Program-made: the position numbers and the translations under genes
Notes under the pieces: generated by a model
Seen by the model: only the letters and a program-made list of their open reading frames with translations
What the model was told of the DNA's origin: nothing
The model's database searches: none
DNA from: Nitrospirales bacterium
Lineage (GTDB): Bacteria > Nitrospirota > Nitrospiria > Nitrospirales > UBA8639
DNA: 64,000 nt
Reading direction: 5' to 3'
Assembly (NCBI GenBank): GCA_963555755.3
Contig: OY820905.2
Coordinates: forward strand, 3,840,001-3,904,000
Part shown: positions 4,415 to 59,422 of the stretch, in pieces
Numbering within the stretch: position 1 is the first letter of the stretch
Layout of the letters: every line of letters begins with the position of its first letter

Positions 4415-4539
4415 GGGAGGCTGTTGAAAAAGTCCGCCAGCGGCGTTCTCGGTCCGTTGTCGTGCTCACGTACTATGAGTACGCTCCGCGCGCCAACGGC
4501 CCTGCGGCCTTGCTGGACGGGCCTTTTTGAACAGCTCCC
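4415..4539 (+). repeat. MITE-like palindromic repeat, family A, copy 1
   Basis: Termini GGCTGTTGAAAAAG...CTTTTTGAACAGC; homologous copies at ~35995, ~56887 and ~59298. Confidence 0.8.
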
Positions 4540-4565
4540 AGATACAACTGGGCTCGGAAGACTCG

Positions 4566-5960
4566 CTATCCAATAAGGACCCGAGACTCGGGATAGCGGT
4601 ATCGAGCCGGAATGGTGGTTTGGACCGCGAACAGCCCAATCAGCAATGGGCCAAATCGGCCTAGGAGCATGGAGACGATAATGACCAGTTTTCCGAAATC
4701 CGTGAGTAAGGCAGAGAAACTGCGGCCGTCCCCATCACCTAGCGACATGCCGACAATGCCCATGGCAGATGTGACCTCAAACATGATGCTCAAAAACGGC
4801 CGTTCTTCCGTAAAGGCTAAGGCTAGCGTGAACAGAGTAATGGTGGTAAAGGCAAGAATGCACAACACAAATGCCCTGACAATAAGATCTTTAGGAATGC
4901 GCCGGTGAAACACTTCCACATCAGCTTTTCTCCAGAGTACGGCCCAAATTGTGAGCCAAATAATGGCAAACGTGGTGGTTTTAATACCGCCAGACATGCT
5001 CCCGGGAGAGCCGCCAATCGTCATCAGTAACAACAGAAAATACAGCGTCGCATCCTTCATGTCTCCGATATCCATGGTGGTAAATCCCGCGGTGCGAGAG
5101 ACGGTGTGGAAATGAGCAACTGCGATACGCTCTCCCAGGCTCAAGGGGCCAAACGTACGAGGATTGTTCCACTCCAGGATCGTGATCCCCAGGGTTCCTG
5201 AAATCAACATGACCAAGGTGACGACGACCACCAATTTGGTATGAGTCTGAAAGCGAAACCGTTTGCCGGTGACGTTGTCCCAGGCATCATGAAAGAGAAA
5301 AAACCCAAGGCTGCCGAAGACGATTAAAATCGTCACGATAAGATTAATGGGAATGTCGGATTGATAGGCAATGAGGCTATCGGAGAATAAGGCAAACCCC
5401 GCATTGTTAAAGGCGGAAATCGAATGGAAGATGCCGGCGTACAGCGCTTGCCCCCATGGCATATCCTGGGCAAATCGCAGTGTAAGGAACATGGCTCCGA
5501 GACCTTCGAAGATCACGGTGGCGACTGCCACGATTTTGACATAGCGAACCGTCTCCCCCATGTCTGAGACACTGAGCGATTCCACGAGCATCATCCGGTC
5601 GCGCAACCCAATGCGATGTCCCAGCGCGAGCAAGATGAGTGTGGCCATGAGCGCATACCCGAGTCCGCCGATTTGGACTAGCATGAGAATGACGAGTTGG
5701 CCAAAGAGGGTAAATTCCGTTGGTGTGTCCATGACAATGAGGCCAGTCACGCATACGGCGGAGGTTGAGGTAAACAGCGCATCAAGAAATCCAAGCTCCA
5801 CGCTCTCTGGCGTGGAAAACGGCAACATCAAAAGAACCGTTCCAATTAAAATAAGCCCTGCGGCGGCCAAAGCGACGATTTGGCCGGGCAGCAACCTGAT
5901 GGATGACAGGCGCCTCAGAAAAGATTCGTGTCGAGTCTTCGTGTGTTCAGTGAAGGCCAT
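4566..5960 (-). CDS. TrkH/KtrB family potassium uptake membrane subunit
   Basis: Pore-loop motifs FTSTSAVCVTGL, SAFNNAGF, SRTAGFT and IGGSPGSMSGGIKTTT. Likely start ATG 5960. Confidence 0.92.
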   Translation of the reverse strand: MAFTEHTKTRHESFLRRLSSIRLLPGQIVALAAAGLILIGTVLLMLPFSTPESVELGFLDALFTSTSAVCVTGLIVMDTPTEFTLFGQLVILMLVQIGGLGYALMATLILLALGHRIGLRDRMMLVESLSVSDMGETVRYVKIVAVATVIFEGLGAMFLTLRFAQDMPWGQALYAGIFHSISAFNNAGFALFSDSLIAYQSDIPINLIVTILIVFGSLGFFLFHDAWDNVTGKRFRFQTHTKLVVVVTLVMLISGTLGITILEWNNPRTFGPLSLGERIAVAHFHTVSRTAGFTTMDIGDMKDATLYFLLLLMTIGGSPGSMSGGIKTTTFAIIWLTIWAVLWRKADVEVFHRRIPKDLIVRAFVLCILAFTTITLFTLALAFTEERPFLSIMFEVTSAMGIVGMSLGDGDGRSFSALLTDFGKLVIIVSMLLGRFGPLLIGLFAVQTTIPARYRYPESRVLIG

Positions 5961-6188
5961 AATGGTGTGATGTAGGTAAGGGCTGTAGGAGTGGTGGAAG
6001 AAAAGAATTTTGAGGTTATTAAACACGGATTGGAATCGAAAGTCACCTTTCCAATTGATGCTTCAGGTTTATTGCAACACATGTCGTGTGAGGCGGGTCT
6101 TATTTTTCAGGAGGTGGACCTATCCAAGCGAGAGTGACACAAGAGGTGAATGCTAAGGTTGTAACCGTACGTAGGGGTTCAGGTCCTC

Positions 6189-6593
6189 CTAACAACGTTG
6201 TCCGTTGAAGAGGCATGGTTTGTAACGGCTGGGGTCGAAATCAACTTCTTCTTGATACACCAATTCATTGCCATTGACCCCGTCCTGTTCAGGATCGTTA
6301 TACATGGTATGATTCCACCAATAAAACAAGGGATAGGCTTCGTGGTAATATACCGGATTCCCGTACACGCTACGCTGATGCTCCAGCACTTTCCGTCCGA
6401 CGACATAATCGACATCATCAGTGCCTGTGAGTGAATACAGAAAGATGATCATTTGTGCTTCATGATCATAGATTTCCTCCAGGCGGGTCTCTTCATCGGG
6501 TTCCGTGGGGAGATTGGGTTGGGACCAACCGAGGGAGGAACACATAAGTGAAGACGCAAGTAACACCACGGGAATACTCCAAGCCTTCTTCAT
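6189..6593 (-). CDS. Secreted hypothetical protein
   Basis: N-terminal signal-peptide-like segment; 134 aa. Confidence 0.65.
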   Translation of the reverse strand: MKKAWSIPVVLLASSLMCSSLGWSQPNLPTEPDEETRLEEIYDHEAQMIIFLYSLTGTDDVDYVVGRKVLEHQRSVYGNPVYYHEAYPLFYWWNHTMYNDPEQDGVNGNELVYQEEVDFDPSRYKPCLFNGQRC

Positions 6594-6767
6594 GATCGTT
6601 CTTCCTTCTCACGTTGGAGTCACGAGTCAGTTTGTCGGAATGTCAACGACATTTTACCCTATCGGCGTCCTATCGGCAATTTGTTTCCGATTCCTCAAGG
6701 GTCACGGTTGTTCTCTTCAGTAGGGGTTTTCTATAATGTCTTTCTCTTTTGTCCTCTTGGGAGATAT

Positions 6768-9470: not shown

Positions 9471-9611
9471 GGGCACCTCTAAAAACCCGGCATTTTTTGT
9501 GAGGGCAAGGAAGCCGCGCGCGGAAAACCGGAGTGTATGGGCGAATACATGAGGATGTGAGCACGCGGCTGACGCCGCCATCACGGAAAAGGACGGTTTT
9601 TAGAGGTGCCC
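9471..9611 (+). mobile_element. 141-bp MITE, family B, copy 1
   Basis: TIR GGGCACCTCTAAAAACC; 4-bp TSD TGAA/TGAA that includes the miaB stop codon. Confidence 0.88.
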
Positions 9612-11110: not shown

Positions 11111-12184
11111 TCAGCGCATTCATGGCCATTCCCTTGGGACGTGACCGTCATGTGTGAAGCGTGATGAGTTTCCCGTTCCTACCCATCATGGATCACGGAA
11201 CCCCTGTCTGTCCTTCGACAGGCCCTATCCTGAGTCTGTCGAAGGATCAGGACAGGCCTTCATTTTGGCAAAGCTCAGGACAGGTTTGGAAGAGCCGTTT
11301 CGTCAAACAATATGCCGTGATCAGCAGGTGCTGGAACATGAAATCTTCCTGCATACCGGCTTGACTCCAGTTGCCCCACTATGTAGTGTTTTGCGACATG
11401 GTGAGTTACCCCAAGGACATGGCCGATCTGATGACCCGTTTTTTTACTGAGGAGGCCTGTCGCACCCATATTGAGAAGCTTCGATGGCCAGACGGGTATA
11501 CCTGTGTGAAATGTGGGAATCAAAAGAGGTGGAAAACCAAGCGAGGGTTGTCGATGTGCTCCAGCTGTCAATATCAGCAGTCACCCTTGGCCGGAACGAT
11601 TTTTCAAGATTCTCGTATCCCGTTGCGCATTTGGTTTCAGGCAATCTGGTGGTTTACAAGCCAGAAAAATGGAGCGAGCGCTCAAACGTTGCAAAGGGTG
11701 TTGGGGATGAGCGGTCACGAGCCTGCGTGGCTCATGCTTCATAAATTACGGGTTGCGATGGGTCGCCCCTCCCGCAACCGTCTTGCCGGGCAAGTTGAAG
11801 TGGATGAAGCCTAGTTGGGTGGAGAAGGAAACAAGCAACTTGTTGGCGTTGCCGTGGAAATCAAAGACAAAGGAAGTGGGCGAATGCGAAGGCAAACGCT
11901 TAAGGGCCGGACGAGCGCGGATGTCAAGAATTTCGTTCAGCAGCATGTTGAGCCTGGCAGTACGATTATAACCGACGGACTCACAAGTTATTGCTGTCTG
12001 GCAGACGAAGGGTATGCGCACAAACCAATGCGAAAGCCCGATGTTGGGGGAAATCACGACCCAGACGCGGACAACCTGTTGCCACGAGTCCACCGTGCCA
12101 TTTCACTGGTGAAACGTTGGCTACTGGGCACATACCAGGGACGCCTTGATCATAAGTACCTCGACGCCTACCTGAATGAATTTA

Positions 12185-13196
12185 GATGGTTCTACGGTTG
12201 ACTCCGGTTAACCAGATCGCCAAGCGTTAGCGGCGCTTTATTCACTGAGATCCCGAGGAGGGTTTGAAACGCAGCCATCGGCGTCTTGCGCCGGTTGAAG
12301 CGGAAAACAAACTCGTCCAGATAGCTCTGGAGATACTTCGGCTCAACCCCGTGATGCGTGCCATTGAGCCACGCCTTGAGGTTGCTGAAGACCCGGTGGA
12401 TAGGGGGCGCAACTTTGTGCGCTCGCCCCGGTGTCCGAACAATTCGCACACGATGCTTGTATCCCACCAGCGCCGCATCGGAATACCCGCGCCAACCATC
12501 GGTTCGGAGTGTGGAGCCGGCCTGAATATTTTCTATCAAAAACCCACGAATGCTGCTCTCGCCTGCATCCTTTAGGAGCGAGAGACGCAACCGCCCTGCC
12601 CGTTCACATTGTTTTCCCTTCTTATCAGTATAGGGGAGAACCTCAACGGCACCGATCAGCAAACTCTTGTGCTTGGCTGCAGGTGAGCCTCGACCTTGCT
12701 TGCCTGTTGCTGGTCCGCCGATGATCGCCTCATCGGCCTCAATCAAGCCAGAGAGCTGGCTTCGGTTCTTGTTGACCATTCCTTGACGCAGCCGATGCAG
12801 CATATGCCAGGCTGTGGTGGCGCTCGATAGGCCAAGCTGTCGTGAGAGCTGGACGGCACTGATTCCTGGCGTATGGGTCGTAACGAGATAAGCAGCCCAG
12901 AACCACTCCTGGACGGGCACGTGGGAACGGTGCATGAGCGTGCCTGCCATAGGCGAAGTCTGACGACCACACGTCCTACACTCGAAAACGTAACGCTTGG
13001 AGTTTAGCCAGGCCGACTTACCCGTGCACGTTGGACAAACAAACTCATCTGGCCAGCGACTCTGCACCAAATATTCAAGGCAAGCCTGGCGTGAAGTGAA
13101 GCGTTGGCGGAATTCCCGCATGTCCTTCGGATACTGCGGACGACCCATACCTGCATAGTCGCAACTGTCTCAACCGGAGTCAACCGTAGAACCATC
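12185..13196 (-). mobile_element. IS1595-family element (inner), copy 1
   Basis: TIR GATGGTTCTACGGTTGACTCCGGTT at both ends, around an intact transposase. Confidence 0.9.
12192..13148 (-). CDS. IS1595-family (ISXO2-like) transposase
   Basis: RWPDEFVCPTC Zn ribbon; IEADE, TDGW and YLDEFVFRFNRR. Confidence 0.92.
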   Translation of the reverse strand: MGRPQYPKDMREFRQRFTSRQACLEYLVQSRWPDEFVCPTCTGKSAWLNSKRYVFECRTCGRQTSPMAGTLMHRSHVPVQEWFWAAYLVTTHTPGISAVQLSRQLGLSSATTAWHMLHRLRQGMVNKNRSQLSGLIEADEAIIGGPATGKQGRGSPAAKHKSLLIGAVEVLPYTDKKGKQCERAGRLRLSLLKDAGESSIRGFLIENIQAGSTLRTDGWRGYSDAALVGYKHRVRIVRTPGRAHKVAPPIHRVFSNLKAWLNGTHHGVEPKYLQSYLDEFVFRFNRRKTPMAAFQTLLGISVNKAPLTLGDLVNRSQP

Positions 13197-13563
13197 TAAA
13201 TTTATAAAAAGAGGCTTAGGATTCCTAATCACCCCCATTATTAATAAAAAGGAAGTGGGCGAATGCGAATGCAAACGCTTAAGGGCCGGACGAGCGCGGA
13301 TGTCAAGAATTTCGTTCAGCAGCATGTTGAGCCTGGCAGTACGATTATAACCGACGGACTCACAAGTTATTGCTGTCTGGCAGACGAAGGGTATGCGCAC
13401 AAACCAATGCGAAAGCCCGATGTTGGGGGAAATCACGACCCAGACGCGGACAACCTGTTGCCACGAGTCCACCGTGCCATTTCACTGGTGAAACGTTGGC
13501 TACTGGGCACATACCAGGGACGCCTTGATCATAAGTACCTCGACGCCTACCTGAATGAATTTA

Positions 13564-14575
13564 GATGGTTCTACGGTTGACTCCGGTTAACCAGATCGCC
13601 AAGCGTTAGCGGCGCTTTATTCACTGAGATCCCGAGGAGGGTTTGAAACGCAGCCATCGGCGTCTTGCGCCGGTTGAAGCGGAAAACAAACTCGTCCAGA
13701 TAGCTCTGGAGATACTTCGGCTCAACCCCGTGATGCGTGCCATTGAGCCACGCCTTGAGGTTGCTGAAGACCCGGTGGATAGGGGGCGCAACTTTGTGCG
13801 CTCGCCCCGGTGTCCGAACAATTCGCACACGATGCTTGTATCCCACCAGCGCCGCATCGGAATACCCGCGCCAACCATCGGTTCGGAGTGTGGAGCCGGC
13901 CTGAATATTTTCTATCAAAAACCCACGAATGCTGCTCTCGCCTGCATCCTTTAGGAGCGAGAGACGCAACCGCCCTGCCCGTTCACATTGTTTTCCCTTC
14001 TTATCAGTATAGGGGAGAACCTCAACGGCACCGATCAGCAAACTCTTGTGCTTGGCTGCAGGTGAGCCTCGACCTTGCTTGCCTGTTGCTGGTCCGCCGA
14101 TGATCGCCTCATCGGCCTCAATCAAGCCAGAGAGCTGGCTTCGGTTCTTGTTGACCATTCCTTGACGCAGCCGATGCAGCATATGCCAGGCTGTGGTGGC
14201 GCTCGATAGGCCAAGCTGTCGTGAGAGCTGGACGGCACTGATTCCTGGCGTATGGGTCGTAACGAGATAAGCAGCCCAGAACCACTCCTGGACGGGCACG
14301 TGGGAACGGTGCATGAGCGTGCCTGCCATAGGCGAAGTCTGACGACCACACGTCCTACACTCGAAAACGTAACGCTTGGAGTTTAGCCAGGCCGACTTAC
14401 CCGTGCACGTTGGACAAACAAACTCATCTGGCCAGCGACTCTGCACCAAATATTCAAGGCAAGCCTGGCGTGAAGTGAAGCGTTGGCGGAATTCCCGCAT
14501 GTCCTTCGGATACTGCGGACGACCCATACCTGCATAGTCGCAACTGTCTCAACCGGAGTCAACCGTAGAACCATC
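13564..14575 (-). mobile_element. IS1595-family element (inner), copy 2 (tandem duplicate)
   Basis: Same TIRs and identical translation as copy 1, offset 1379 bp. Confidence 0.9.
13571..14527 (-). CDS. IS1595-family transposase, identical copy
   Basis: Protein identical to 12192-13148. Confidence 0.92.
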   Translation of the reverse strand: MGRPQYPKDMREFRQRFTSRQACLEYLVQSRWPDEFVCPTCTGKSAWLNSKRYVFECRTCGRQTSPMAGTLMHRSHVPVQEWFWAAYLVTTHTPGISAVQLSRQLGLSSATTAWHMLHRLRQGMVNKNRSQLSGLIEADEAIIGGPATGKQGRGSPAAKHKSLLIGAVEVLPYTDKKGKQCERAGRLRLSLLKDAGESSIRGFLIENIQAGSTLRTDGWRGYSDAALVGYKHRVRIVRTPGRAHKVAPPIHRVFSNLKAWLNGTHHGVEPKYLQSYLDEFVFRFNRRKTPMAAFQTLLGISVNKAPLTLGDLVNRSQP

Positions 14576-14734
14576 TAAATTTATCTTTCGATTCAATCGT
14601 TGGACCTCGCGCTCTCGGGGCCTCTTGTTTCATCGACTCCTGGAAAATGCTATCGCAGTCGACCCGGCTCCGCTCCAAAAAATTCAGAGGACCCACAAAA
14701 TCTAGTAGCAACTGGAGTTAAGCCGGTATGCAGG

Positions 14735-18331: not shown

Positions 18332-21300
18332 ATGGTCAATGGCGAATGCCTGGGCGATCTGGGTGCGCCGCATGTGAAAGGATCGGTGAGCTTGATGATG
18401 AACGAGGGCACGAGGATTGACACGATTTGTGAAGAGAGAGACGCTTTTCCGCTAACCGGCGCCCCTGATCCCGCCGGTGCAACTGGAAGGCGTGGTGCCC
18501 CGCGCCCCGCGCCCCACCTCACTCACCGACCCCGTCCCGAGTCCCGCCCGGCCCCCCGCAGGCATCGTGGTGTGGCCCTCGCCTGCGCCGCCCTGGCCCT
18601 GCTCGGCCTCCTGGCCCACCCGTCGCCGGCCGCCGCGCAGGCGGTCACGACCTTCATCAGCAACACCGGGCAGACACCGACCTTCACCTCACCCTTGGTT
18701 CAGGCCGTAGCGTTCACCACGGGCACCGGCACCTACACGCTGTCCAGCGTCGGGATATATCTTGATACTCAGATGGGGCCGGACTCCCCCATCCCGTCGG
18801 TCAATATTCACAGGGACGACGAGGGCAATCCGGCCACCGCCCTACTGATCTCCCTGACCAATCCGGGCACGATCCAGAACAACGCCGTCAACAGCTTCAC
18901 GCCCCCGGCAACACCACGCTGAGTGCCAGCACGACCTACTGGGTGGTCACGACCAATGCCGCCAGGGTCGATGGCACGGGGTTAAATGTCGGCCTGACCA
19001 CACAGGACCCTGGACACCGGCACGGCAGTGGGATGGAGCCTCGGCGACGCGCGTCTTAAGATCGACTTGCAAAGGCCCGACTGGACTGTCAGCGCTCGCC
19101 CCCTCCGCCTCGAGATCCGGGGGACAAGCGGGACCCCCGCGACGGGCGCGCCGACGATCACGGGCACGGCGCAGGTCGGGCAGACGCTGACGGCGGGCAC
19201 CACCTCATCAGGGATGCCGACGGGCTGACTAGCGTCAGCTACACGTACCAGTGGATCCGGACCGAGGCGCCCATCTCCGAGGCGACGGCGAGCACCTACA
19301 CGCTGGTGCCGGCCGACCTGGGCATGACGATCAAGGTAAAGGTGAGCTTCACCGACGCTGCCGGCTACGACGAGACGCTGACCAGCGCGGCGACGGCGAC
19401 CGTCGCGGCGGCGAACACCCCTCCCTCGGCGTCTGACGGGACGGTCACGACGAACGAGGACACGGCCCGCACGTTCGCCGCGGCAGACTTCAATTTCTTG
19501 GACACCGACTCCGGCGACACGTTATCAAACGTAAGGATTGTACGCTTCCGGCTTCGGGCACGGGGACCCTGGCGCTCTCGGGCACGCCTGTGACCGCAGG
19601 GCAGGAGTTCGGCGAGCAAACATAGGCACTCTGACCTACACCCCGCCCGCCAACGCGAACGGGACGGGCTACGCGAGTTTCACCTTCAAGGTCAGCGATG
19701 GCACGGACGAGAGCGCGGCGGACTACACGATGACCATCAACGTGACGGCGGTGAACGACGCCCCGACGGTGGCGACCGCGATTCCGGACCAGCCGGCGAC
19801 GGTGGGGACGGCGTTCAGCTATGCGTTCCCGGGACACCACGTTCACCGACGCGGACACCGGCGCCACGCTGACCTACACGGCGACGCAAGCCGACGGCGC
19901 GGCGCTGCCCACGTGGCTGGGCTTCGCCGCCGGCACGCGCACCTTCTCGGGCACGCCGCAGACGGCGGACGTGGGGACGGTGTCGGTGAAGGTGACCGCC
20001 AGCGACAGCAACGGCGGGTCGGTCAGCGACGAATTCGACATCACGGTGAGCGCGGCGGCGAACACCCCCGCGACGGGCGCGCCGACGATCACGGGCACGG
20101 CGCAGGTCGGGCAGACGCTGACGGCGGACACCACCGACATCATGGATGCCGACGGGCTGACCAGCGTCCGCTACACGTACCAGTGGATCCGGGTGGCCAC
20201 GACAACGACGGCGACGAGACGGACATCTCCGGGGCGACGGCGAGCACCTACACGCTGGTGACGGCCGACCAGGGCACGACGATCAAGGTGAGGGTGAGCT
20301 TCACCGACGACGCCGGCAACCCCGAGACGCTGACCAGCGCGGCGACGACGGCCGTCGCGGCGGCGGCCAACACCCTTCCGACGGCGCTGACGGGACGGTC
20401 ACGACGAACGAGGACACGGGCACGTTCGCTGACGGCGACTTCAATTTCCGGACACCGATGGCGACGGGCTGAAAGCGTAGAGACATTACGCTTCCGGCTT
20501 CGGGACGGGGACCCTGGCGCTCTCGGGCACGCTGTGACTGCAAACCAGGTGGTTGCGGCGACAAACATAGGCACTCTGACCTACACCCCGCCCGCCAACG
20601 CGAACGGGACGGGCTACGCGAGTTTCACCTTCAAGGTCAGCGATGGCACGGCCGAGAGCGCGGCGGCCTACACGATGACCATCACCGTGACGGCGGTGAA
20701 CGACGCCCCGACGGTGGCGAACACGATTGACGCGGACCAGCCGGCGACCGCGGGTCACGGCGTTCAGCTATGCGTTCCCGGCGCGCCACGTTCAGCGACG
20801 CGGACACCGGCGACGCTGACGGCTACACGGCCACGGAAGCCGACGGCGCGGCGCTGCCCACGTGGCTGGGCTTCGCCGCCACCACGCGCACCTTCTCGGG
20901 CACGCCGCAGACGGCGGACGTGGGGACGGTGTCGGTGAAGGTGACCGCCAGCGACGGCAACGGCGGGTCGGTCAGCGGCGATTCGACATCACGGTGAGCG
21001 CGGCGGCCAACACCCTTGCGACGGGCGCGCCGACGATCACGGGCACGGCGCAGGTCGGGCAGACGCTGACGGCGGACACCACCGGCATCATGGATGCCGA
21101 CGGGCTGACCAGCGTCAGCTACACGTACCAGTGGATCCGGGTGGACGACGGCACCGAGACGAACATCTCCGGGGCGACGGCGAGCACCTACACGCTGGTG
21201 ACGGCCGACCAGGGCACGACGATCAAGGTGAGGGTGAGCTTCACCGACGACGCCAGCAACGCCGAGACGCTGACCAGCGCGGCGACGCGGCCGTCGCGGC

Positions 21301-24300: not shown

Positions 24301-24391
24301 GACGCTGAGCCTGGAAGGGCAGCGGCAGGAGCCGGTCGGCCCACAGCCAATCTACCAAGGCCTGCAATTCCAAGCCGCCTGGGGGTTCTGA
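18332..24391 (+). pseudogene. Giant repetitive surface adhesin-like protein with C-terminal beta-barrel; multiply frameshifted as given
   Basis: Signal peptide (..ALALLGLLAHPSPAAA). Ig-like repeat A ([18 protein letters not shown]) x6; cadherin-like repeat B ([20 protein letters not shown]) x3; putative-Ig/CADG-like repeat C (LPTWLGF..RTFSGTP) x3. Barrel ends in WGF. Confidence 0.75.
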
Positions 24392-24436
24392 GCGTTCCCC
24401 TCGCCCCGGCGGCTATAATGTCACCAATTCCTTAAG

Positions 24437-32538: not shown

Positions 32539-32690
32539 TAAGAAATAACCCAGCCGGTTGGTCTCTGGAATGCTGATCTGGGGAATTCGTTCGGGTGAGC
32601 CTTGGTGATTCCTGAAGTATTTATGGTATTCTTCGCTTTGTGGTGCGTGAGCCCCTTTGTCAAAACGCCCATGGTTGCAGGAGGTACGAG

Positions 32691-32850: not shown

Positions 32851-32891
32851 CTAGGGATGATTTCGAAGGAGTCTCTGGACGAGGTCGTTTG

Positions 32892-33716: not shown

Positions 33717-33873
33717 GGGTTCACGCAAGAATGACTTCCCATGTTTGGGCGTCGATTCATCCCGCCTGGCGGTGTGGCCCGTCCTTTCCATACGAGGAGT
33801 ATGCGCAGTCCTCGCGTCTTGCCAGACAGGCATCTCAACACCCAAACATGGGAAGTTATTCTTGCGTGAACCC
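33717..33873 (+). mobile_element. MITE family D, copy 2
   Basis: Homologous to 32381-32538. Confidence 0.8.
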
Positions 33874-33940
33874 TAGGGTTCTATGCTGAAATACGCGGAA
33901 CAAATCCGAAACTCGAGTGCCGAAATTCGAAACACATTCA

Positions 33941-34227
33941 ACCTAGAAACAGCTGTTGGGCGCAAAGAAGACCCGTAAGATATTGGTGTGCATCGTGAAA
34001 GAGAAAAAGTCGTGGTCACCTTGGTGGTGATGAGACATTTTTTTGTGTTGCTAGGAGCCTGTCCGAGATTAGCGATTGTCACGAGGGTGGTCTGGTTTGA
34101 GTCAGATATTTCGATCGTTTGAGGCGAATAGTGGTGCTATTCAACGAAAACGGAGAATGTTCAAAAAGGCCGCCAACTGCGCCAAGAGCTTGCGGGGGAC
34201 TTGGTGATCCAACAGCTGTTTCTAGGT
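33941..34227 (+). mobile_element. MITE family F interrupted by a partial family C copy and a family A fragment
   Basis: TIR ACCTAGAAACAGCTGTTGG; family C end inserted after CTAG at 34051-34054. Confidence 0.75.
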
Positions 34228-34352
34228 TCCCATGGCCACATTGCACATAACAAAGACGCCGGGATACTGGTTGCGATTATTGGACGCGCAAGATAATCCG
34301 GTACTCCCGACGCAGAACGCGACAAATCCGTTCGGCGTATTTTGGGCGGTTT

Positions 34353-35455: not shown

Positions 35456-35994
35456 ACTTGGCATGGGAGGAAATTTTGTCGGAAAAAATGTCATAACCTG
35501 TTGAATCTAAATAATAAAATTTGTATAAAGTTTGATGGTCGTGTTGCCGATTGGGCCAAACTCCTATCCAAAATCGTAAAAAAACTTTACGATTTTACAG
35601 TCGAGTCAGCAGAATCTTGTGAAAAAATTAATCAATTCAATGTGTTGCGAGGGAATGGGGAATTGTAAAAATTTTCGACATTCGTTAGATGACGAATGAG
35701 TATTTTGAGGGAGGATGGTGAAAAATATGCGTTAAAACAACGAGTTGATTGTCCAAATCAACCAAGTTTCTGCCATGATCAATTTTCTGACATAACCCCA
35801 AAGAGGGATGAGGTTTAGCTGGAAGGCAGACGGAATTACCACACTTACGAGGGGCTATTAAGTGTAGAAACGTAGACTTTATTTTTCAGACACAGTCAGC
35901 TATTGGGGATCAACTTGCGGTCCTTATGGGGCTGTTGAATAATTCGCGTCAATAGCCAATACACGCTCCAGATGAGCCCCACATCGTCAGTGGG

Positions 35995-36141
35995 AGGGAA
36001 TGTTCAAAAAAGCATGCCCTGAGTCTTTCCGAAGGGTCTATCCAGCAAGGCCGCAGCCCTTTTGACGCGCGGAGCGTACTCATAGTACGTGAGCACGGCA
36101 AAAGGGCGAGAACGCCGCTGGCGGCTTTTTTCAACATTCCC
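35995..36141 (-). repeat. MITE-like family A, copy 2
   Basis: GGGAATGTTCAAAAAAG...CTTTTTTCAACATTCCC. Confidence 0.8.
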
Positions 36142-37262: not shown

Positions 37263-37403
37263 GGGCACCTCTAAAAACCGTCCTTTTCCGTGATGGCGGC
37301 GTCAGCCGCGTGCTCACATCCTCATGTATTCGCCCATACACTCCGGTTTTCCGCGCGCGGCTTCCTTGCCCTCACAAAAAATGCCGGGTTTTTAGAGGTG
37401 CCC
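37263..37403 (-). mobile_element. MITE family B, copy 3
   Basis: 141 bp; TSD TTAA/TTAA. Confidence 0.88.
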
Positions 37404-47942: not shown

Positions 47943-48082
47943 GGGCACCTCTACAAACCAGGCATTTTGGTGAGGGCAAGGAAGCCGCGCGCGGAAAACC
48001 GGAGTGTATGGGCGAATACATGAGGATGTGAGCACGCGGCTGACGCCGGCATCACGGAAAAGGACGGTTTTTAGAGGTGCCC
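47943..48082 (+). mobile_element. MITE family B, copy 4
   Basis: 140 bp; flanks ATAA/ATTA. Confidence 0.85.
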
Positions 48083-49952: not shown

Positions 49953-49995
49953 CTTCCTGTTTGTTATTCATATGTTTCTGATTCTCTTTCTGTAA

Positions 49996-51444
49996 CTACT
50001 CAGGTGTGATGATCTTTGTAGTGAATTGTGCAGGCATAAAGGGGTGGCCGATCATGGCTTGTGAAATGGCTTGCAGCATGTTGCCGCCCTGCTTTCTCGC
50101 GGTAGAAAGGTAGCTTCGTATGCGGGCGAACTGCCTCGCGCCTTGAAGCGTTCGAAAACACCCGGATATTTTGAGGCGGAGCTTGATCATGCGGATATCC
50201 TGTTCTGCCAGATTATTAGTGAAGGGAACCTGTCTGTCATGGAGGAACGCGAGCACGGAGGCTTCATGCTCGCCAAGACGGGTGAGGAGATTTTGGGCCT
50301 TGGTCTTTTTGGGCCGGCCTCGTGACTTTTTCTGTGGCGGTGCCGGAAGGGGGTTGGCCTGCCATCCGAGGGTGAGAAGATCCCTGTATTGTTTCAGCCA
50401 GGGGGTTTTCTGTTCTTCCGTTAACTGTGCGAGTTGCTTGCTGACAAACACGTTCATCGTCAGCAACAGGTCAAACATGTGTTTGGCCCATGGTTGTTCG
50501 TGCTGCTCGAACAGGCACGTGAGTTCCCGCAAATGATGGGCGTTACAGAGGCCGTGGGCACAGTCATAGGAGAGATAGGGTTTCCAGAAATCGTGGATCA
50601 GGCGGCCAGCAAAATCCGGGAGGATCTGGAACTGCTCGATCGCCTCTCTTCCCCGTTTGGCGTGCACACCGTAAAAGGTCAACGTGGCCGTGCTGGCACT
50701 GTGGAGCCAGTGGAGCGTCCCGGCCGTGCGGACGCCGCTTTCATCGGCATGGAGGATGGGACTCTTGCCGAGCGCTTCTTTGACCGCAGTCTCGAACGGC
50801 GCGAGGTGCTCATAACTTCGGCGGGAGGCCTCGTCAATGGTGGCGTCGCTGACCGAGGCGCCATACAGATCAGCCATCATCTGGCTGACACGGCGTAAGG
50901 GGATCAACTGTTGGTTCTGGAGGTAGACCAGGAGGCTGCGAAATCTGGGACCGTACTGTGCCGGCGCAGGCAGGTCATCAGGAAATGACGCCGTGACCGA
51001 GCGGCCGCATTGGGGGCAGGTTTTGATTGCTCCCCGATATTCGGTGACGTCGAGTTTTGGCTCCGGCAGTTCAAAGAGCTGCCGGCGTTCATAGCCGGTG
51101 ACCGTCTCGTTGGTGAGGTCGGCATGGCAGGAACAGGAGTGAACAGGCAGGTGGACCAGGTGGTCTGGGGTTTCCACCTGTTTTAACGTCTGGCCGGCAT
51201 GTCCCTGTTGGCCGCCCGGCTTTTTCCCGGAAGGTATGCGCAGGCTCTTGGTTCGGGGCTTGGCCGGTCCATCGGACGAGGGCGGTTTGCTGCTGTTGCG
51301 ACTGTGTTGGTCGAGCCGCTGTGCCAGTTCGGTGACATGCGTGGTCAGCGCCTGCCCCTGTTCCTGCAGCGCCAGGATCAGTTCGACGAGCGCCTCGGGG
51401 TTGCTCTTGGCCAGGATGAGGAGTGCGTCGCGGGTGAAGGTCAT
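49996..51444 (-). CDS. IS66-family transposase
   Basis: SRNSSKPPSSD, KKPGGQQGH, LHADESG, LCNAHHLREL and VPFTNNLAEQDIRMIK. Confidence 0.92.
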   Translation of the reverse strand: MTFTRDALLILAKSNPEALVELILALQEQGQALTTHVTELAQRLDQHSRNSSKPPSSDGPAKPRTKSLRIPSGKKPGGQQGHAGQTLKQVETPDHLVHLPVHSCSCHADLTNETVTGYERRQLFELPEPKLDVTEYRGAIKTCPQCGRSVTASFPDDLPAPAQYGPRFRSLLVYLQNQQLIPLRRVSQMMADLYGASVSDATIDEASRRSYEHLAPFETAVKEALGKSPILHADESGVRTAGTLHWLHSASTATLTFYGVHAKRGREAIEQFQILPDFAGRLIHDFWKPYLSYDCAHGLCNAHHLRELTCLFEQHEQPWAKHMFDLLLTMNVFVSKQLAQLTEEQKTPWLKQYRDLLTLGWQANPLPAPPQKKSRGRPKKTKAQNLLTRLGEHEASVLAFLHDRQVPFTNNLAEQDIRMIKLRLKISGCFRTLQGARQFARIRSYLSTARKQGGNMLQAISQAMIGHPFMPAQFTTKIITPE

Positions 51445-52328
51445 GGCTTGCTCCGGCAGAGGGCCTGTCGGAAGTGGCGGATGAGGGGATAGAGATAAAT
51501 TGCCTTCACCGGCACGCGCAGAGCCTTGTCACGGTCCTGCCGGGACCGGCCTTTGGTCTGCCCGACATAGAGCCAGTTCGCGGCCTGATAGCAGATACCT
51601 TTGAAGCGGTCTCGCTCCACAAAGGTCTCCACCAAGTGGACGGGATGGCCGTATTTCTCGATCCAGTCCTGCCGGAGACGTCTCATGACCCGGCCCAGGA
51701 GATGGCTGGCCAGATGCGGCACACGCACCCAGGGCAGGATGAGAAAGCGGGTATTGTTGGTCATGAAGTTGAGGTTGGCGGCTCGGGTGTCCGGCTCCCA
51801 GCCGATAAAGGTGTCGCGCGGGGTGGTTTTCCAGGCGGCGGAACCGAAGAGGAGGCAGGCCAGATCCTGCCCGGAGCGATCCCGCACCAGGTACTTGAGA
51901 TGTTCACCGACCGTTCGGGTGAACCCGAGGTAGTGATGGTGGCTCAGGTAATATCCCACACAACTGGCTTCGTAGGAATGTGAGGTTGGAATATGAATGG
52001 ACAGGGGCGTCAGGGTCTTGAGAGCTGCGTCGATGTGCGGGGCTTCGGGAGGCATAAACCCCTTTCGGAAAGGGGGGAAGATGTTGCGTCGAGAGGCGAC
52101 ACGAATCGGGGGCAGCTTCAGGAGCCCGCGATGTTCGAGTTTGTCGATCATGCTGCGGGCGGCAAAGGTTTTCAGTTGTCCGGACGGGGTCTGCCAGCCC
52201 CAGTGCCGACAAATATGCTGGGTTATTTTATGGCGGCTCCAGTCAGGGTGCCGGCAAACCAGATGGCGTAACCAGCACAGATCAGATTGGGGGAGGCGAC
52301 GACCTTGACATGTAATCGCTTCATTCAT
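51441..52328 (-). CDS. DUF4338 (Druantia DruA-like) domain protein
   Basis: HHYLG..GEHLKYLV, RDTFIGW, NNTRFLILPWV, LVETFVE..F.G.CYQAANW..VG.TKGR. Recognised by motif only. Confidence 0.75.
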   Translation of the reverse strand: MNEAITCQGRRLPQSDLCWLRHLVCRHPDWSRHKITQHICRHWGWQTPSGQLKTFAARSMIDKLEHRGLLKLPPIRVASRRNIFPPFRKGFMPPEAPHIDAALKTLTPLSIHIPTSHSYEASCVGYYLSHHHYLGFTRTVGEHLKYLVRDRSGQDLACLLFGSAAWKTTPRDTFIGWEPDTRAANLNFMTNNTRFLILPWVRVPHLASHLLGRVMRRLRQDWIEKYGHPVHLVETFVERDRFKGICYQAANWLYVGQTKGRSRQDRDKALRVPVKAIYLYPLIRHFRQALCRSKP

Positions 52329-52531
52329 GGCCCCGATTATGCCATGGGTGGAGCCGTTAGTCCAGAAAAAAATCAGGCTATAGAAAATTGACCTGAGTAG
52401 TTACCTCTTTCTTTACGTTCCTGGATTAACGAGTTTGTACTAGAGACTTATATTCTTCCAAGGAGATTGGGTCAAACGGTAAAAAAGAGCTTGGAAGGGA
52501 ATGATGAGTAAAAAGAAGTGGAAAGGCAGTT

Positions 52532-55540: not shown

Positions 55541-56080
55541 TTACAACCGAATACGTCGATTTAAAGGGCGGCGCGAGCGACTTGGCTGTGATGACCGGGT
55601 TGGCGCTGGACTGGTGGTTGATAACGCGCAATCGAGTCTGGGCGACTCTCGATCCAAGGATTTATACAAGTGAATTTCGACGATGCGATTGTCATTGATT
55701 CCCATGGCTTCGCACAACGCATCTTGGGCAATTTTTAGTCCGCCATCGAGGTCCCGCCTCAGCAATGTTGGAAAATAAAAGTGAATCGAGAGCGCAAGAT
55801 AGTGGGATTGAGCCGCATTCAGAAAGGTGGCACGGTTGGGTGATTGCGCCAACGCTCCCAGTAAAATTTGAGCGATAGCGGCCTTGTACCGTCGTCCGGT
55901 TGAAGACAGAACACGTCGTCCATTGACTGTCGCATATTGGCTGTTAATGCTGGGAGGCAGAGGTAGCTCGAAGGCAAATCGTGTGGGGGTGAGAGTCACC
56001 AATGGGGTTGTCGATCGAAGATCAACGGGACTTTTCGGGTTCTGGCGTTTTTTCTGTAACGAGAGTCGGGGTGCCGCCAC
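55541..56080 (-). CDS. rusA: RusA-family Holliday junction resolvase
   Basis: LPLPPSINSQY, RRDLDGGLKIAQDAL and INDNRI. Likely native start GTG 56080. Confidence 0.8.
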   Translation of the reverse strand: MAAPRLSLQKKRQNPKSPVDLRSTTPLVTLTPTRFAFELPLPPSINSQYATVNGRRVLSSTGRRYKAAIAQILLGALAQSPNRATFLNAAQSHYLALSIHFYFPTLLRRDLDGGLKIAQDALCEAMGINDNRIVEIHLYKSLDRESPRLDCALSTTSPAPTRSSQPSRSRRPLNRRIRL

Positions 56081-56100
56081 AGGCTTTTGGGGTTGGCTAG

Positions 56101-56260
56101 GAGCCTGTCCGAGATTAGACGCATCTACTGCGGATGTGCTGGATTTGGCCAGATCTTCCGATCCTTTTCGTTGAATAGTCCCACTATTCGCCTCAAACGA
56201 TCGAAACATCTGACTCAAACCAGCACATCCTCGCGACGATCGCTAATCTCGGACAGGCTC
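56101..56260 (+). mobile_element. MITE family C, copy 2
   Basis: Perfect TIR GAGCCTGTCCGAGATTAG; CTAG/CTAG TSD containing the mraZ stop. Confidence 0.88.
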
Positions 56261-56701
56261 CTAGAGAAGGTCCAGCATTTTTCCGAGATTGTTCTCGAAT
56301 TGCTCATCGTGTTGAATGAGATAGCATCGCCATTCCGAAGGATTCCAGATCTCCAACCGGTGATACATCCCAACTAAGACAATCTCTAAGTCGTCTTCTA
56401 TGGGGATGGTTTTTCGGAGTTTGCCGGGAATGAGAATACGCCCGGTTTTGTCGATATCCGAGGAGGCGGCTTCGGATACCACGAAGTGCATGAACAAGCG
56501 GCTTTGATCTTCATCAAAGGTGTTTTTTGCACGTGTGAGGACGGATTCCCATTCTTTCACGGAGTAGGCTGAGAGGGGCTGGTCTTGTCCCTTGACGAAA
56601 ATGACTCGCTCGCCATCTGCTTCCAGTTGCTCCCGAAGCGGGCTTGGAAGAATGAATCGACCCTTCTCATCTAATTTACAATGGTATTGTCCAGCGAACA
56701 T
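56261..56701 (-). CDS. mraZ: MraZ-family regulator
   Basis: MFAGQYHCKLDEKGRFILP, IDKTGRILIP and VGMYHRLEIWN. Confidence 0.85.
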   Translation of the reverse strand: MFAGQYHCKLDEKGRFILPSPLREQLEADGERVIFVKGQDQPLSAYSVKEWESVLTRAKNTFDEDQSRLFMHFVVSEAASSDIDKTGRILIPGKLRKTIPIEDDLEIVLVGMYHRLEIWNPSEWRCYLIQHDEQFENNLGKMLDLL

Positions 56702-56886
56702 CGTTCAATATTTCTCGACTGGTTGAGTGTGATTCCCAATAAATACTTAGTGGAAGGTTAGGAAAATTACCTAGTAATGTCAAGTAATACTTTTAATTTC
56801 ATATTTCAACTTCTTCAAAGGGCCTGTTGAGTATTTCACGCCCGAGGCCCATACATGGTCGAGAGGGGCAGGCCATCATCGAGTTG

Positions 56887-57036
56887 GAGGGAATGTTCAA
56901 AAAAGCATGCCCTGAGTCTTTCCGCAGGGTCCGTCCAGCAAGGCCGCAGCCCTTTTGACGCGCGGAGCGTACTCTCAGTACGTGAGCACGGCAAAAGGGC
57001 GAGAACGCCGCTGGCGGCTTTTTTCAACATTCCCTC
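56887..57036 (-). repeat. MITE-like family A, copy 3
   Basis: GAGGGAATGTTCAAAAAAG...CTTTTTTCAACATTCCCTC; overlaps the comF stop. Confidence 0.8.
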
Positions 57037-57772
57037 AAACCATTCGAGCGAGGGTTTGGACGTACACCGCTTCTGCGCCGGCTTTTCGCAGCGTTTTTGC
57101 GCATTCATTGATGGTCGTTCCGGTGGTAAAGACATCATCCACAAGTAAGATCTTTTTGCCAGAAACCACATCGGGATGGGTGACGGCAAAGGACTTCCGC
57201 AGGTTTTTGAGCCTGGCCGATCGTTTCAAAGTAGTTTGAGGGACGGTGTGTTGAGTGCGAACCAAGACATTCCACATGACGGGCATTCCAAGGTGCTGGC
57301 TCAGACGTTCAGCCAACAGTAGCGATTGATTATATTCCCGTTCTCTCAGTCGCGTGGGGTGAAGGGGCACGGCCATGATTCCGTCAAGATCACGGGGTAA
57401 GTCCCAAGCCGAAGCCATGAGCTGGGCCAGTGGTTGCGCCAATCGTACTTTCCCGTGATATTTGAATTGGCTGATGGCATCTTTGAGTACCCCCTGGTAC
57501 GCGTAGGGTGTGCAGGCTTTGGTGTACGCTGGCGGTCGTTGCCGACATCGCCCACAGAGGTGCTGCGGACTGTGCGTGAGCGTTGAAGACGAGGAAAACG
57601 GAATATGGCATCGAGGGCATTTTGGCTCGGGCAGAACGCAAATGGTTTTCCAACACGACGGACAAATGTAGGGAATGGCATTATCGAACAACGCTTCTTT
57701 GCAACTAATACAGTCCATCGGCAGAAGCGTATGAAGAACGCGATGAAGTATGTGAGAGGGAGTCAACATCAT
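57035..57772 (-). CDS. comF: ComF-family phosphoribosyltransferase-like protein
   Basis: Double Zn ribbon; VPLH..R.REYNQS; ILLVDDVFTTGTT. Confidence 0.9.
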   Translation of the reverse strand: MMLTPSHILHRVLHTLLPMDCISCKEALFDNAIPYICPSCWKTICVLPEPKCPRCHIPFSSSSTLTHSPQHLCGRCRQRPPAYTKACTPYAYQGVLKDAISQFKYHGKVRLAQPLAQLMASAWDLPRDLDGIMAVPLHPTRLREREYNQSLLLAERLSQHLGMPVMWNVLVRTQHTVPQTTLKRSARLKNLRKSFAVTHPDVVSGKKILLVDDVFTTGTTINECAKTLRKAGAEAVYVQTLARMV

Positions 57773-57950
57773 AGGGGTTCTAACCTCTGCCTGAATGGGA
57801 CATCACTTTAGAAAAAGCTCTGAATAGCGTCAAGCGAGGATGTTGGGACCGTTGAATAATTCAAAAACTATCCTAATTCGTCACTACCTTTCCACCATCC
57901 TTCTGTGGCAGAAGGAATCGGGGCTGTTGGAAATTTGGATCATGTGATAC

Positions 57951-58458
57951 GGGTTCGCATAAGAATAACTTTCCCTGTTTGGGTGTTGAGGTACCTGTCT
58001 GGCAAGGCGCGAGGGCTGCGCATACTCCTGGGTATGGAAGGGCCTGTGAAACAATAACTTGGACAAAATCGCGCCCAGATTTTGGTCGGATTTGGACGTA
58101 CTGATTGAGAAAACACCGAGGCATAGCATGCCGATGTTGAAGTGTTTTCGATTGAGGCGCGTTCAACCCAGAAACGGCAGTTGGGCGCAAAAAAGAGGCG
58201 CAAGATATTGGTGTGCATGGTGAAATAAAAAAAGTCGTGGTCACCTTGGTGGTGATGAGACATTTTTTTATTTTGCCAGGTGCGCCAAGAGCTTGCGTGG
58301 ACTTTTGTGATCCAATTGCTGTTTCTAGGTTTCAAGATGGCCCGAAGATGGGATGCGAGATGTTCAAGTTATTGTTTCACAGGCCCTAAGGGACGAGCAA
58401 CGCCGCCAGACAGGATGGATCGACGCCCAAACAGGGGGAGCTATTTTTGCGTGAGCCC
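57951..58458 (-). mobile_element. Three-level nested MITE stack (D contains E contains F)
   Basis: D halves at 57951-58039 and ~58390-58458; E 58040-58386 (TIR GGGCCTGTGAAACAATAACTTG); F 58166-58330 with TTCA TSD. Confidence 0.8.
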
Positions 58459-58526
58459 TGAGTGTGTGGTATAGGAACGGGGAGTGCGTGCCAGCCATTG
58501 TCCCAGGGTCAGGAGTGAGAAGAATC

Positions 58527-59240
58527 GTGGTACGGTTAGAGCATGTCTACAAGGAATATCGTCGTGGTGCCGTGGTGATTCATGCCCTCAACGATGCGAC
58601 GGTCCACATTGCCGACGGAGAGTTCTGTGCGGTGATGGGGCCTAGTGGGAGCGGAAAGAGTACGCTCTTGAATGTCATTGCTGGGTTGGACTCTATTTCG
58701 TCCGGTGAGATTTTTCTGGATAACCAACCATCGAGCGGGTTTTCGGACGCAGAGTGGACTCGACGGCGACGGGAGTGGATTGGGATGGTCTTTCAGTCCT
58801 TTCACTTGGTGCCAGGCATGACCGCTGCGGAGAATGTGGGGTTGCCCTTGCAGTTCAATGGGCAATCCTCGAGGGTCATTCGTCAACGAGTGGCTGAGGT
58901 GTTGGAAATGGTAGGGCTCGAGGATCGGCGCACTCATCGACCCAGCGAGCTATCGGGTGGCGAACAACAACGCGTGGCCATTGCCCGGGCCGTGGTCCAT
59001 CAACCGCGGGTTCTCTTGGCCGATGAACCAACGGGAAATCTCGACTCTCATCAGGGTGCCGAGATCGTGGAATTGCTGCATCGAATAGCCAAACGTGCCG
59101 GTCAAACGGTCATTCTTGTAACACATTCCGAAACCGCGGCTCGCGTGGCTGACCGAATCTATGCGTTACAGGATGGGCAACTGAAGCCACGTGGGTTCCC
59201 GAAACCGGCAGCCCCGGCCATGTCAGTGACTATTGAATAG
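58527..59240 (+). CDS. ABC transporter ATP-binding protein (LolD/MacB-like)
   Basis: GPSGSGKST, LSGGEQQRVAIARA, LADEPTGNLD and VTH. Confidence 0.92.
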   Translation: MVRLEHVYKEYRRGAVVIHALNDATVHIADGEFCAVMGPSGSGKSTLLNVIAGLDSISSGEIFLDNQPSSGFSDAEWTRRRREWIGMVFQSFHLVPGMTAAENVGLPLQFNGQSSRVIRQRVAEVLEMVGLEDRRTHRPSELSGGEQQRVAIARAVVHQPRVLLADEPTGNLDSHQGAEIVELLHRIAKRAGQTVILVTHSETAARVADRIYALQDGQLKPRGFPKPAAPAMSVTIE

Positions 59241-59297
59241 TTTATAAATCTCCATGGCTAGGCCTATGTAATGAATTCCATAAATTCTCAAGCGCGA

Positions 59298-59422
59298 GAG
59301 GGGGTGTTCAAAAAGGCTGTCCAGCAAGGCCGCAGGCCCTTTGGCGCGCGGAGCGTACACGGAGTACGTGCGCACGACAAAGGGCCGAGAACGCCGCTGG
59401 CGGACTTTTTCAACACCCCCTC
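59298..59422 (-). repeat. MITE-like family A, copy 4
   Basis: GAGGGGGTGTTCAAAAAG...CTTTTTCAACACCCCCTC. Confidence 0.8.

Follow-up and report, generated by a model that had tools for sequence, protein, structure and literature searches.

A single-strand-folding core shared by short bacterial repeats with different transposon-like ends

The ERIC repeats of enterobacteria (IRU, RU-1), which we take to be the same as the element MITEEc1, form a hairpin over their whole length. ERIC has been known since 1990-91, and the RSA and RPE repeats for more than two decades; their interior conservation and movement are still unexplained, and for ERIC no DNA motif besides the terminal inverted repeats (TIRs) had been found (PMC2229807). 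MITEEc1 is listed in the IS630 group of transposons (PMC11602168). An orientation-dependent RNase E effect of ERIC has been described in Yersinia (PMC2229807; PMC10969869). Reviews of bacterial hairpin MITEs present the interiors of such elements as family-specific, none being common to several transposase types (PMC2229807; PMC3184786; PMC10969869).

The window analysed here is a stretch of 64,000 nt from a Nitrospirales bacterium (contig OY820905.2, positions 3,840,001 to 3,904,000). A first-pass annotation proposed that several repeat families in it, with unrelated termini, carry one ERIC-like hairpin core. The window holds four copies of family A, four of B, three of D (one split by nested inserts) and two full copies plus one partial copy of C, alongside the other elements listed below.

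4415-4539, minus strand: A hairpin, core at 4440-4513; no left end found upstream
9471-9611, plus strand: B element, core at 9505-9577, located at the stop codon of miaB, with TGAA as its 4-bp duplication
31075-31215, minus strand: B element, core at 31109-31181
32381-32538, minus strand: D element, core at 32433-32487; outer module present, inner loop of another type
32690-32851, minus strand: C element with IS1182-type ends, a marginal member of the core group
33717-33873, minus strand: D element, core at 33769-33822
33940-34228, strand not given: E element split by a partial C (34054-34150)
35928-36141, plus strand: complete A unit with left end (35928-35941), 55-nt linker and hairpin (35996-36141), core at 36045-36118
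37263-37403, minus strand: B element, core at 37297-37369
47943-48082, plus strand: B element, core at 47976-48048
49992-52404, minus strand: autonomous IS66 of 2413 bp, one of 12 copies; ends match G, core absent
56100-56261, minus strand: second full C element
56820-57034, plus strand: complete A unit with left end, 56-nt linker and hairpin (56889-57034), core at 56938-57011, duplication TCAAA
57951-58458, plus strand: nested stack of E in F in D, with D in two parts (57951-58039 and 58391-58458)
58040-58386, in the stack: F within the split D, carrying the inner tandem-GA module and hosting E
58165-58331, in the stack: E within F, the innermost insert
59226-59420, plus strand: A unit, its left end decayed (at about 59226, by inspection), hairpin at 59300-59420, core at 59324-59397

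The unit at 35928-36141 has a 24-nt insert in its hairpin and the target duplication CTTAT. Public RNA contigs of other copies diverge from it at 35923-35926 and past 36141, and such contigs join across 58029-58391 in the nested stack; these data are contigs only, covering repeats without strand, end or level, and no expression evidence is drawn from them. Promoter and terminator scans of two A units gave no sites. When 26 window ORFs were compared with NCBIfam, none of the ten that overlap or adjoin repeats matched a family. Rfam, at its cut-off, returned no family for the window repeats (tRNA only on the window), and at E<=10 nothing relevant in 55900-59600, where three chance matches were obtained.

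Genome-wide, the families are dispersed and multi-copy, with TIRs, lengths of 141-263 bp and 15-160 full copies each (157 A, 120 B, 160 D, 44 C, 90 F, 15 G and 38 I). Target duplications are of 4 bp in B (81% of 120 copies), 3 bp in D (56% of 160) and F (66% of 90), TA in C (43% of 44) and 8 bp in G (40% of 15); A has 5-6 bp in 51 of the 80 left-end-bearing copies among 197 scored, and 26% of the 38 full I copies have a duplication. The ends of G match IS66 elements of the same genome, those of C match IS1182 elements and those of A, more loosely, IS5 elements; mobilisation in trans by these three partners may account for the respective families. The partner elements lack the core, their best internal match (E 0.28) overlapping a nested E copy. 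No autonomous partner for B, D, F or I was found in the genome, nor any PF13359 transposase for D, F and I. The repeats are non-autonomous transposons, and whichever DDE transposase fits their ends is likely to move them. The view of a conserved, single-strand-folded module, found in shells of different IS families and also in ERIC, is borne out. That the termini are unrelated holds in part: over the terminal 18 bases, G, ERIC and RSA are alike at 3-7 positions, but D, F and I have 10-11 in common and A and B have 10.

The core consists of two parts. Its outer part comprises an AAGG loop, a lone C-G pair and an AAC bulge; in its inner part, a G.T pair and a stem of 5 bp lie under tandem G.A pairs. 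The ordered motifs first reported for A, B and D are present in A and B; as written for D, they match only the split copy (58018), and both D1 and D2 have ACACCGC in place of AACGCCGC and a different inner loop. The 4-nt spacer attributed to A finds no match as written, the real spacer being 5 nt (as in 102 of 136 copies across the genome). A covariance model trained on A alone finds B and G and, in Escherichia coli K-12, ERIC-type and likely RSA repeats, which supplies the cross-family matches that had been sought. Among its 29 matches at E<=10, the four window B copies score at E 1.2e-4 to 0.043, while D1 reaches only E 1.0 and the C copies stand at E 2.4 and 9.8. Pairwise alignment against dinucleotide shuffles gave z of 9.5 for B-G, 6.0 for G-RSA, 5.7 for D-I2, 4.3 for A-RSA, 4.1 for A-ERIC and 2.8 for D-G; the values for A-B (1.7), A-D (0.9) and C with any family (at most 3.1) are low. 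D is a weaker member of the core group, and C, put forward as a looser analogue, is marginal. A wider model, R2, which includes D, G, I, ERIC and RSA rows and has four of its 42 rows on the reverse strand, was used for screening only.

All ten window strands that were folded gave z of -3.6 to -10.8, and none of 200 shuffles was as stable. Whether folded as RNA or as DNA, the core strand is more stable than its complement in all eight families. On that strand, purine-purine oppositions outnumber pyrimidine-pyrimidine oppositions by 145 to 24 (13 elements); G.T and A.C oppositions are about equal (50 and 44), which counts against the favoured reading given below. Family I carries the core twice, head to head. 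Another point against that reading is that E, and largely C and F, have spread with little or no outer motif, which shows that elements can do without the complete core. Three familiar identities were considered and rejected. A duplex-DNA operator would call for symmetric sites at fixed spacing, a poor fit because the apex varies from 4 to 10 nt, and the half sites differ. In a kink-turn, a 3-nt bulge stands ahead of tandem G.A pairs; the latter are present, but the bulge is only 0-1 nt in the folds. The loops are invariant rather than variable guides, unlike those of an IS110 bridge RNA, and IS110 was found only as an insert in A.

Family A is informative in its architecture. The base of its hairpin, at first taken as its TIR pair, is not the pair of true ends: the complete unit is a left end, a 55-nt linker and a hairpin, the left end lying 70-80 nt upstream and the true ends being this left end and the right arm. 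At variable positions, the inner arm follows the right end in 41 of 50 units and the left end in one. Among 197 copies, an inner C faces a G of the right end in 161 and 189; in other genomes the same holds for 56 of 57 copies. A thus keeps an extra, altered copy of its right end only to close the stem; together with the real left end upstream, this means that the closed hairpin matters separately from the ends. Cruciform pairing of both ends is ruled out as the whole explanation for A, whose left end lies outside the hairpin. As for the linker, stops occur in 12-34 of the 34 copies in every frame, and the same copies gave no consensus fold. No autonomous IS ending in the hairpin was found at 110 loci of other genomes, for which 11 transposases were searched; the single IS neighbour among these loci is an IS1182 at two sites of a Terriglobia genome, where its own end adjoins a complete element.

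Constraint is concentrated in the motif. Across 34 complete A units, changes per column were 0.17 in the motif, 0.11 in the right end, 0.5 in the inner arm, 0.84 in the other core, 3.25 in the linker and 4.0 in the apex, and median identity was 64% in the linker and 94% in the core. Constraint on the A motif is five times that on the surrounding paired core, and the motif is conserved as tightly as the transposon end. The loops are more conserved than the stems, which the first-pass proposal of a selected core had needed. In six families taken together, alleles present in several copies occur at 0.147 per motif column compared to 0.325 elsewhere (p 5e-4). Changes found in single copies are equally frequent in and outside the motif (5.63 vs 5.56 per 1000 nt, p 0.94), a comparison with little power for weak selection on young copies. 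Selection on the core is supported by the depletion of shared alleles and by the end-like constraint in A, and we infer that it acts mainly on copies that go on transposing. The hairpin arms co-vary even at the termini; since template switching can match hairpin arms, stem covariation alone is weak evidence here.

The explanation that we favour, to which we give somewhat less than an even chance, is that the folded single-strand core raises the element's own spread, probably via a conserved host protein. Non-autonomous repeats would be moved by a DDE transposase that matches their ends, while the core, folding on one strand and putatively binding a widely conserved host protein, would raise the element's chance of being copied. 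New shells may acquire the core by nested insertion followed by deletion. Our preference for folded DNA over RNA as the working form is slight. One observation counts against a role in spread. In a sister genus, an A copy resident between rplW and rplB has been inherited across nine genomes with 4 changes in 24 motif columns (0.17), compared to 0.80 in the rest of the element (p 6e-4) and 1.31 at fourfold sites (p 1e-8), a pattern suggestive of selection on a copy that no longer moves. The copy is lost, its site being empty or collapsed, in four of 13 parsed genomes, one copy is decayed and another has a 39-nt insert in common with its paralogues. This loss, decay and sharing weaken the objection but do not remove it.

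The same resident copy, situated in the S10 operon spacer, is among the arguments for a host-selected RNA signal, in which the core would tune processing, decay or termination in transcripts and bearing copies would be tolerated or kept. We regard this as rather unlikely. The published RNase E effect in Yersinia agrees with it, as do the eight K-12 ERIC copies matched below gathering score by the Rfam family V_AS5 (RF02818). Tandem G.A and G.U pairs are, moreover, common features of RNA. Orientation points both ways: between co-oriented genes the counts of sense to antisense copies are 51:80 for A (p 0.014) and 30:10 for B (p 0.002), biases which indicate that the host does see orientation in some families, yet they are opposite, and five core families pooled give 135 cores with and 128 against transcription (p 0.71). 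An early count for A at distances of up to 50 nt from gene ends, biased 14:53 towards antisense, was partly a linker artefact and has been replaced by the 51:80 count; no shared orientation to replication was detected. The S10 copy itself carries its core antisense to the mRNA and is missing from the genomes noted above, single-copy mutations are not depleted in the motif, and the motif is constrained like a transposon end inside transposing units. An mRNA processing or stability signal, suggested at the outset as the reason for conservation, is thus not supported so far.

A further alternative dispenses with any specific ligand: an ancient hairpin was inherited, re-wrapped by nesting and kept alike by gene conversion, its purine-rich mismatches being retained only for one-strand folding, which limits cruciforms, nuclease attack or deletion. 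Nesting is indeed common and composites have been amplified, with 33 of A in C, 34 of D in E and 17 of I in E; a resident copy carries the paralogue-specific insert, the arms co-vary to the termini, and E, which lacks the motif, shows this strand asymmetry too. Amplified composites also mostly explain the fixed orientation of nested A and D copies, which had been considered as strand-specific targeting; nested copies cluster on the tree both in A (7 changes vs 26 shuffled) and in D (12 vs 23). However, generic folding does not require identical letters, whereas the K-12 matches of the A-only model are all ERIC-type or RSA-like; nor does it require a motif five times more constrained than its paired surroundings, and conversion cannot act across phyla. 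We find this account doubtful. Most improbable is a core that is itself the selfish unit, a small hairpin of RNA or DNA copied into palindromes by some non-DDE enzyme or a conserved peptide-coding cassette as proposed for RPE, since its occurrence in many shells, its head-to-head doubling in I and its matches to RPE1 and RPE5 protein profiles are set against duplications that flank the shells and track shell type, a shell-free core absent among 43 rows outside the first family set, an apex length that breaks any reading frame and no conserved core boundary.

Should the module aid transposition, DDE transposon biology would gain a new cis-acting part; should it instead be an RNA signal, Rfam would lack a structured RNA that crosses phyla. 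A common, mutable motif set of about 40 nt, a genome with both elements and matching transposases, and a linker that serves as neutral control make the question directly testable in K-12.

Among known systems, ERIC is the closest, and the resemblance that had been suggested was confirmed on K-12 DNA: it bears both the outer and the inner motifs, on the corresponding strand. The A-only model makes ten matches in K-12, all in ERIC-type or likely RSA repeats, and scores all 11 pattern-found ERIC copies, four at E<=2e-5 and the others at E 0.07-1.4. The central inverted-repeat core of ERIC is found in A, A', G and B and not in D, C or F. ERIC differs in its phylum, its length (127 bp) and its ends, alike at 3-7 of 18 positions, and in its TA duplication, seen here only in C, compared to 3-8 bp in A, B, D and G. 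Another example is RSA of E. coli, a label inferred from count, length and the 2:4 strand split in Table 1 of PMC5172473 rather than from a reference sequence. Its six K-12 copies are hairpins of about 150 bp whose inner module is nearly identical to that of B and G (z 4.3-6.0 in the RSA comparisons), but they lack the canonical outer AAGG/AAC module and have their own ends (3-5 of 18 in common). For the Rickettsia repeats RPE-1 and RPE-5, the likeness comes from protein profiles below cut-off. Positions 14-37 of the RPE1 profile TIGR01045 gave 115 matches, every one on the core strand and 113 of them in B or G, the best at 21.2 bits against a cut-off of 30, and the RPE5 profile TIGR03776 gave six weak matches (E 0.3-0.8); the copies here are almost all intergenic and keep no frame. 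A likeness among IRU, RSA and RPE may already have been noted by Bachellier in 1999 or Ogata in 2000. BLAST of A and B against plasmids returned only chance matches of 25-30 nt, with no Rickettsia copies among the plasmids. Correia/NEMIS, RUP, YPAL and QMITE are alike in being short and gene-less, with TIRs, a duplication and a partner IS in the genome. The A layout of left end, linker and closed hairpin is not described in the three reviews of bacterial hairpin MITEs (PMC2229807; PMC3184786; PMC10969869). We tentatively propose, as a possibility that we rate below the role in spread itself, that ERIC, RSA and RPE form one superfamily with hundreds of unnamed repeats from five or more phyla, defined by a transposase-independent folded module. 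This would act in cis as a helper, bound by a conserved host factor, that allows elements without genes to be moved in trans; nesting would swap it among IS5, IS1182, IS66 and IS630-type ends, and family A would build a dummy end so that it stays folded.

The hairpin repeat families of this Nitrospirales genome (A, B, D, F, G and I, and marginally C; MITE-like and gene-less) contain a folded core that is real, under selection and common to classic repeats; it is a conserved part of these hairpin MITEs. Its outer module comprises GC, an AAGG loop, a lone C-G pair and an AAC bulge, and its inner module sets tandem G.A pairs over a G.T pair and a 5-bp stem, leaving the apex free. The window carries A and B in four copies each, D in three and C in two full ones, plus pieces of F and of E, a family lacking a clear core; in folding, all ten strands tested beat 200/200 shuffles in stability. 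The ordered internal motifs that the first-pass annotation reported are present in the window copies of A and B, with an A spacer of 5 nt instead of 4, and its pattern for D matches one of three window copies, the other two of which do not fit.

Features discussed (G000, source genome; C1, its contig; L-numbers, extracted loci)
G000:C1:3840001-3904000, the window in source contig coordinates
Window 49992-52404, IS66 element with G-type ends, one of 12 copies
Window 58165-58331 and 33940-34228, family E, 167-bp hairpin
Window 36005-36030, and L038, L080, L116, L127, palindromic inserts in A arms
G000:C1:564933-565195 (L181), family I, 263 bp, 38 full copies
G000:C1:1893100-1894520 (L166) and others, IS110 in family A, 6 copies inspected, repeat cluster of 11
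G000:C1:2911360-2911530 (L185), extra shell around the core, ends unlike A-I, low copy number

Covariance model R1 rests on an alignment of 20 diverse members of family A, chosen from 157. Pairing holds in 97% of the cells of this alignment, and both sides have changed in 10 of its 28 pairs, which exceeds 500 shuffles and every slid control but is inflated by related copies and arm homogenisation. The cross-family matches that had been proposed as a check are present, with R1 recovering B, G, I, D and ERIC. In the window its E-values run from 1.2e-4 to 0.043 for the B copies, with 1.0 for D1; on cut loci it scores G at E 4e-6 in two of three copies (3.7 in the third), I at 0.016 and D at 0.018-0.066. 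Direct A-B and A-D alignments gave z-scores that were not significant. Alignment z-scores place the elements in two clusters, A/A'/B/G/ERIC/RSA and D/I/G, to which F is joined through the inner module. Family C, rightly described at first as a looser analogue, is similar only loosely (R1 E 2.4 and 9.8) and falls nearly outside the clusters.

Counted along the core strand, 13 elements together have 145 purine-purine oppositions against 24 pyrimidine-pyrimidine ones, with 50 G.T and 44 A.C. This strand is the more stable one, as RNA and as DNA, in 8/8 families, and the apex ranges from 4 to 10 nt. The strand asymmetry and variable apex fit a folded single strand better than a duplex operator; DNA and RNA are not separable on these data. 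The likeliest reading, at slightly less than even confidence, is that the core is a cis-acting folded module that would raise an element's chance of being copied. Its effect would be independent of transposase family, and for this reason the core would probably be read by a host protein. Selection by the host as an RNA signal is credible, though unlikely. Bearing on it are copies between co-oriented genes (gene calls made in this analysis), whose core strand is sense in 135 and antisense in 128 when pooled, 51:80 in A and 30:10 in B. Only family I deviates in replichore bias (12/38, p 0.03).

Retention of the core for structure only, with conversion, we consider improbable. Selection is read from where changes accumulate. 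Parsimony changes, counted per column in the 34 complete A units (of 52) whose linker is 55 nt long, were high in the apex (4.0), linker (3.25) and left end (1.21), and low in the right end (0.11) and inner arm (0.5). The linker yielded neither reading frame nor fold. The loop motif changed at 0.17 against 0.84 in other core columns, as anticipated for the loops. In a comparison across six families, the motif is poor in alleles that several copies share (0.147 vs 0.325 per column elsewhere, p 5e-4) but not in changes private to one copy (5.63 vs 5.56 per 1000 nt, p 0.94), as would be expected if the motif mattered to copies still spreading. A resident copy of A, absent from G000, lies between rplW and rplB in the S10 operon of many streamlined sister-genus genomes (L190-L195, L199-L210), its core antisense to the mRNA. 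Of the 13 genomes parsed from that genus, 9 have it; another 10 loci lie outside the parsed set, two with full-length matches. Across the nine genomes the motif changed at 0.17, the rest of the element at 0.80 and fourfold sites at 1.31. This constraint runs against selection via spreading copies; the spacer element is a candidate domesticated copy. Conversion or re-insertion may play a part, as one copy is decayed and another has an insert in common with its paralogues.

Shells, the transposase-type ends around the core, differ among families. Families F, G and I are additions made in this analysis, and full-length copies genome-wide number 157 (A), 120 (B), 44 (C), 160 (D), 90 (F), 15 (G) and 38 (I), plus 68 for E. 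Target duplication length depends on family: 4 bp in B (81% of copies), 3 bp in D (56%), F (66%) and I (26%), TA in C (43%) and 8 bp in G (40%). The ends of G match those of a 2413-bp IS66 element, those of C match an IS1182 element at its left end, and those of A resemble an IS5 element that has GGG termini and duplicates 6 bp. No partner elements for B, D, F or I were found in the genome, and the core is absent from the matching autonomous IS66, IS1182 and IS5 elements. That the core is a self-mobile or peptide cassette is very improbable. Nesting of families in one another is frequent, and nested A and D copies group together on trees, so composites were amplified as units; these would offer the core a route to switch shells. 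In family I, two different core modules lie head to head, and the lone pair between two tandem G.A pairs is swapped relative to D, from G-C to C-G. Family E, the commonest host of nested D, I and C, has the strand asymmetry of the core families with the motif absent; its shell may be IS1380-type, going by its termini and what looks like a 5-bp TTNAA duplication. At G000:C1:2332100-2333800 (L165), an IS630 element flanked on both sides by the same D 5' arm, inverted, suggests rearrangement between two targeted D copies. The IS66 element has a second ORF (window 51441-52328, 295 aa) upstream of its transposase, with no NCBIfam match. Two tandem IS1595 copies (window 11864-14584) show a duplicated 300-bp flank and 1379-bp spacing. 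A GC-rich island at window 18900-24400, with repeat units of ~950 bp and ~300 bp and broken frames, resembles a decayed repetitive surface-protein gene and is bracketed by a 300-bp direct repeat at 14735 and 23565.

The family A hairpin alone has no consistent target duplication. Of the 197 copies scored, 80 have a left end 70-80 nt upstream, and in the other 117 none was found; in 51 of the 80, a 5-6 bp duplication brackets the stretch from left end to right arm (chance expectation about 1-2%, by arithmetic). At window unit 35928-36141, contigs from other A copies diverge at the predicted boundaries, and left end, linker and hairpin recur together in 11/57 A copies of other genomes. The hairpin 5' arm is a further end-like sequence, the third, in which C replaces the G of the right end (161 and 189 of 197 copies; 56/57 in other genomes). 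This inner arm tracks the right end in 41/50 units and the left end in 1/50, so a closed stem is maintained separately from the two working ends. Small palindromes, 24-48 nt long, have inserted repeatedly at fixed spots in A arms, both in this genome and in others. The IS110 element, inserting at one fixed point within a 24-nt insert of A copies, is a site-specific parasite of this repeat.

Family A has close relatives in named Nitrospira genomes, and R1 matched 30/121 genomes of the phylum. A pattern scan of species genomes gave at least 123 stretches in several shells; of 80 named among the matches listed, 61 are labelled Nitrospir- and 19 are others, including Syntrophales, Geobacteraceae, Acidobacteriota and Firmicutes. 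A broader model, R2 (42 rows, four being reverse-strand contaminants), finds 3-47 copies in each of five genomes chosen for already having a pattern match. A core common to ERIC, RSA, RPE or several shells is undescribed in the portions available of PMC2229807, PMC10969869, PMC2759123, PMC3184786, PMC11602168 and PMC5172473, and no paper on one was found in the wider literature covered, the primary RSA and RPE papers and supplements lying outside it. The RPE1 protein profile has 115 matches in G000 (best 21.2 bits, below the 30-bit cut-off), 113 of them on the core strand of B or G; a link of the Rickettsia palindromic elements to the core is suggestive, since the profile also matched 6/14 control genomes at E<=10. 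In Rfam the sole relevant family is V_AS5, which matches ERIC. The ERIC likeness is borne out in E. coli K-12, where R1 with filters off scored 11/11 pattern-found ERIC copies (E 7.5e-6 to 1.4), two of which are among its ten matches at E<=10. Four of those ten are ERIC-type and six fall in a ~150-bp hairpin whose copy count, length and strand split match those given for RSA in Table 1 of PMC5172473.
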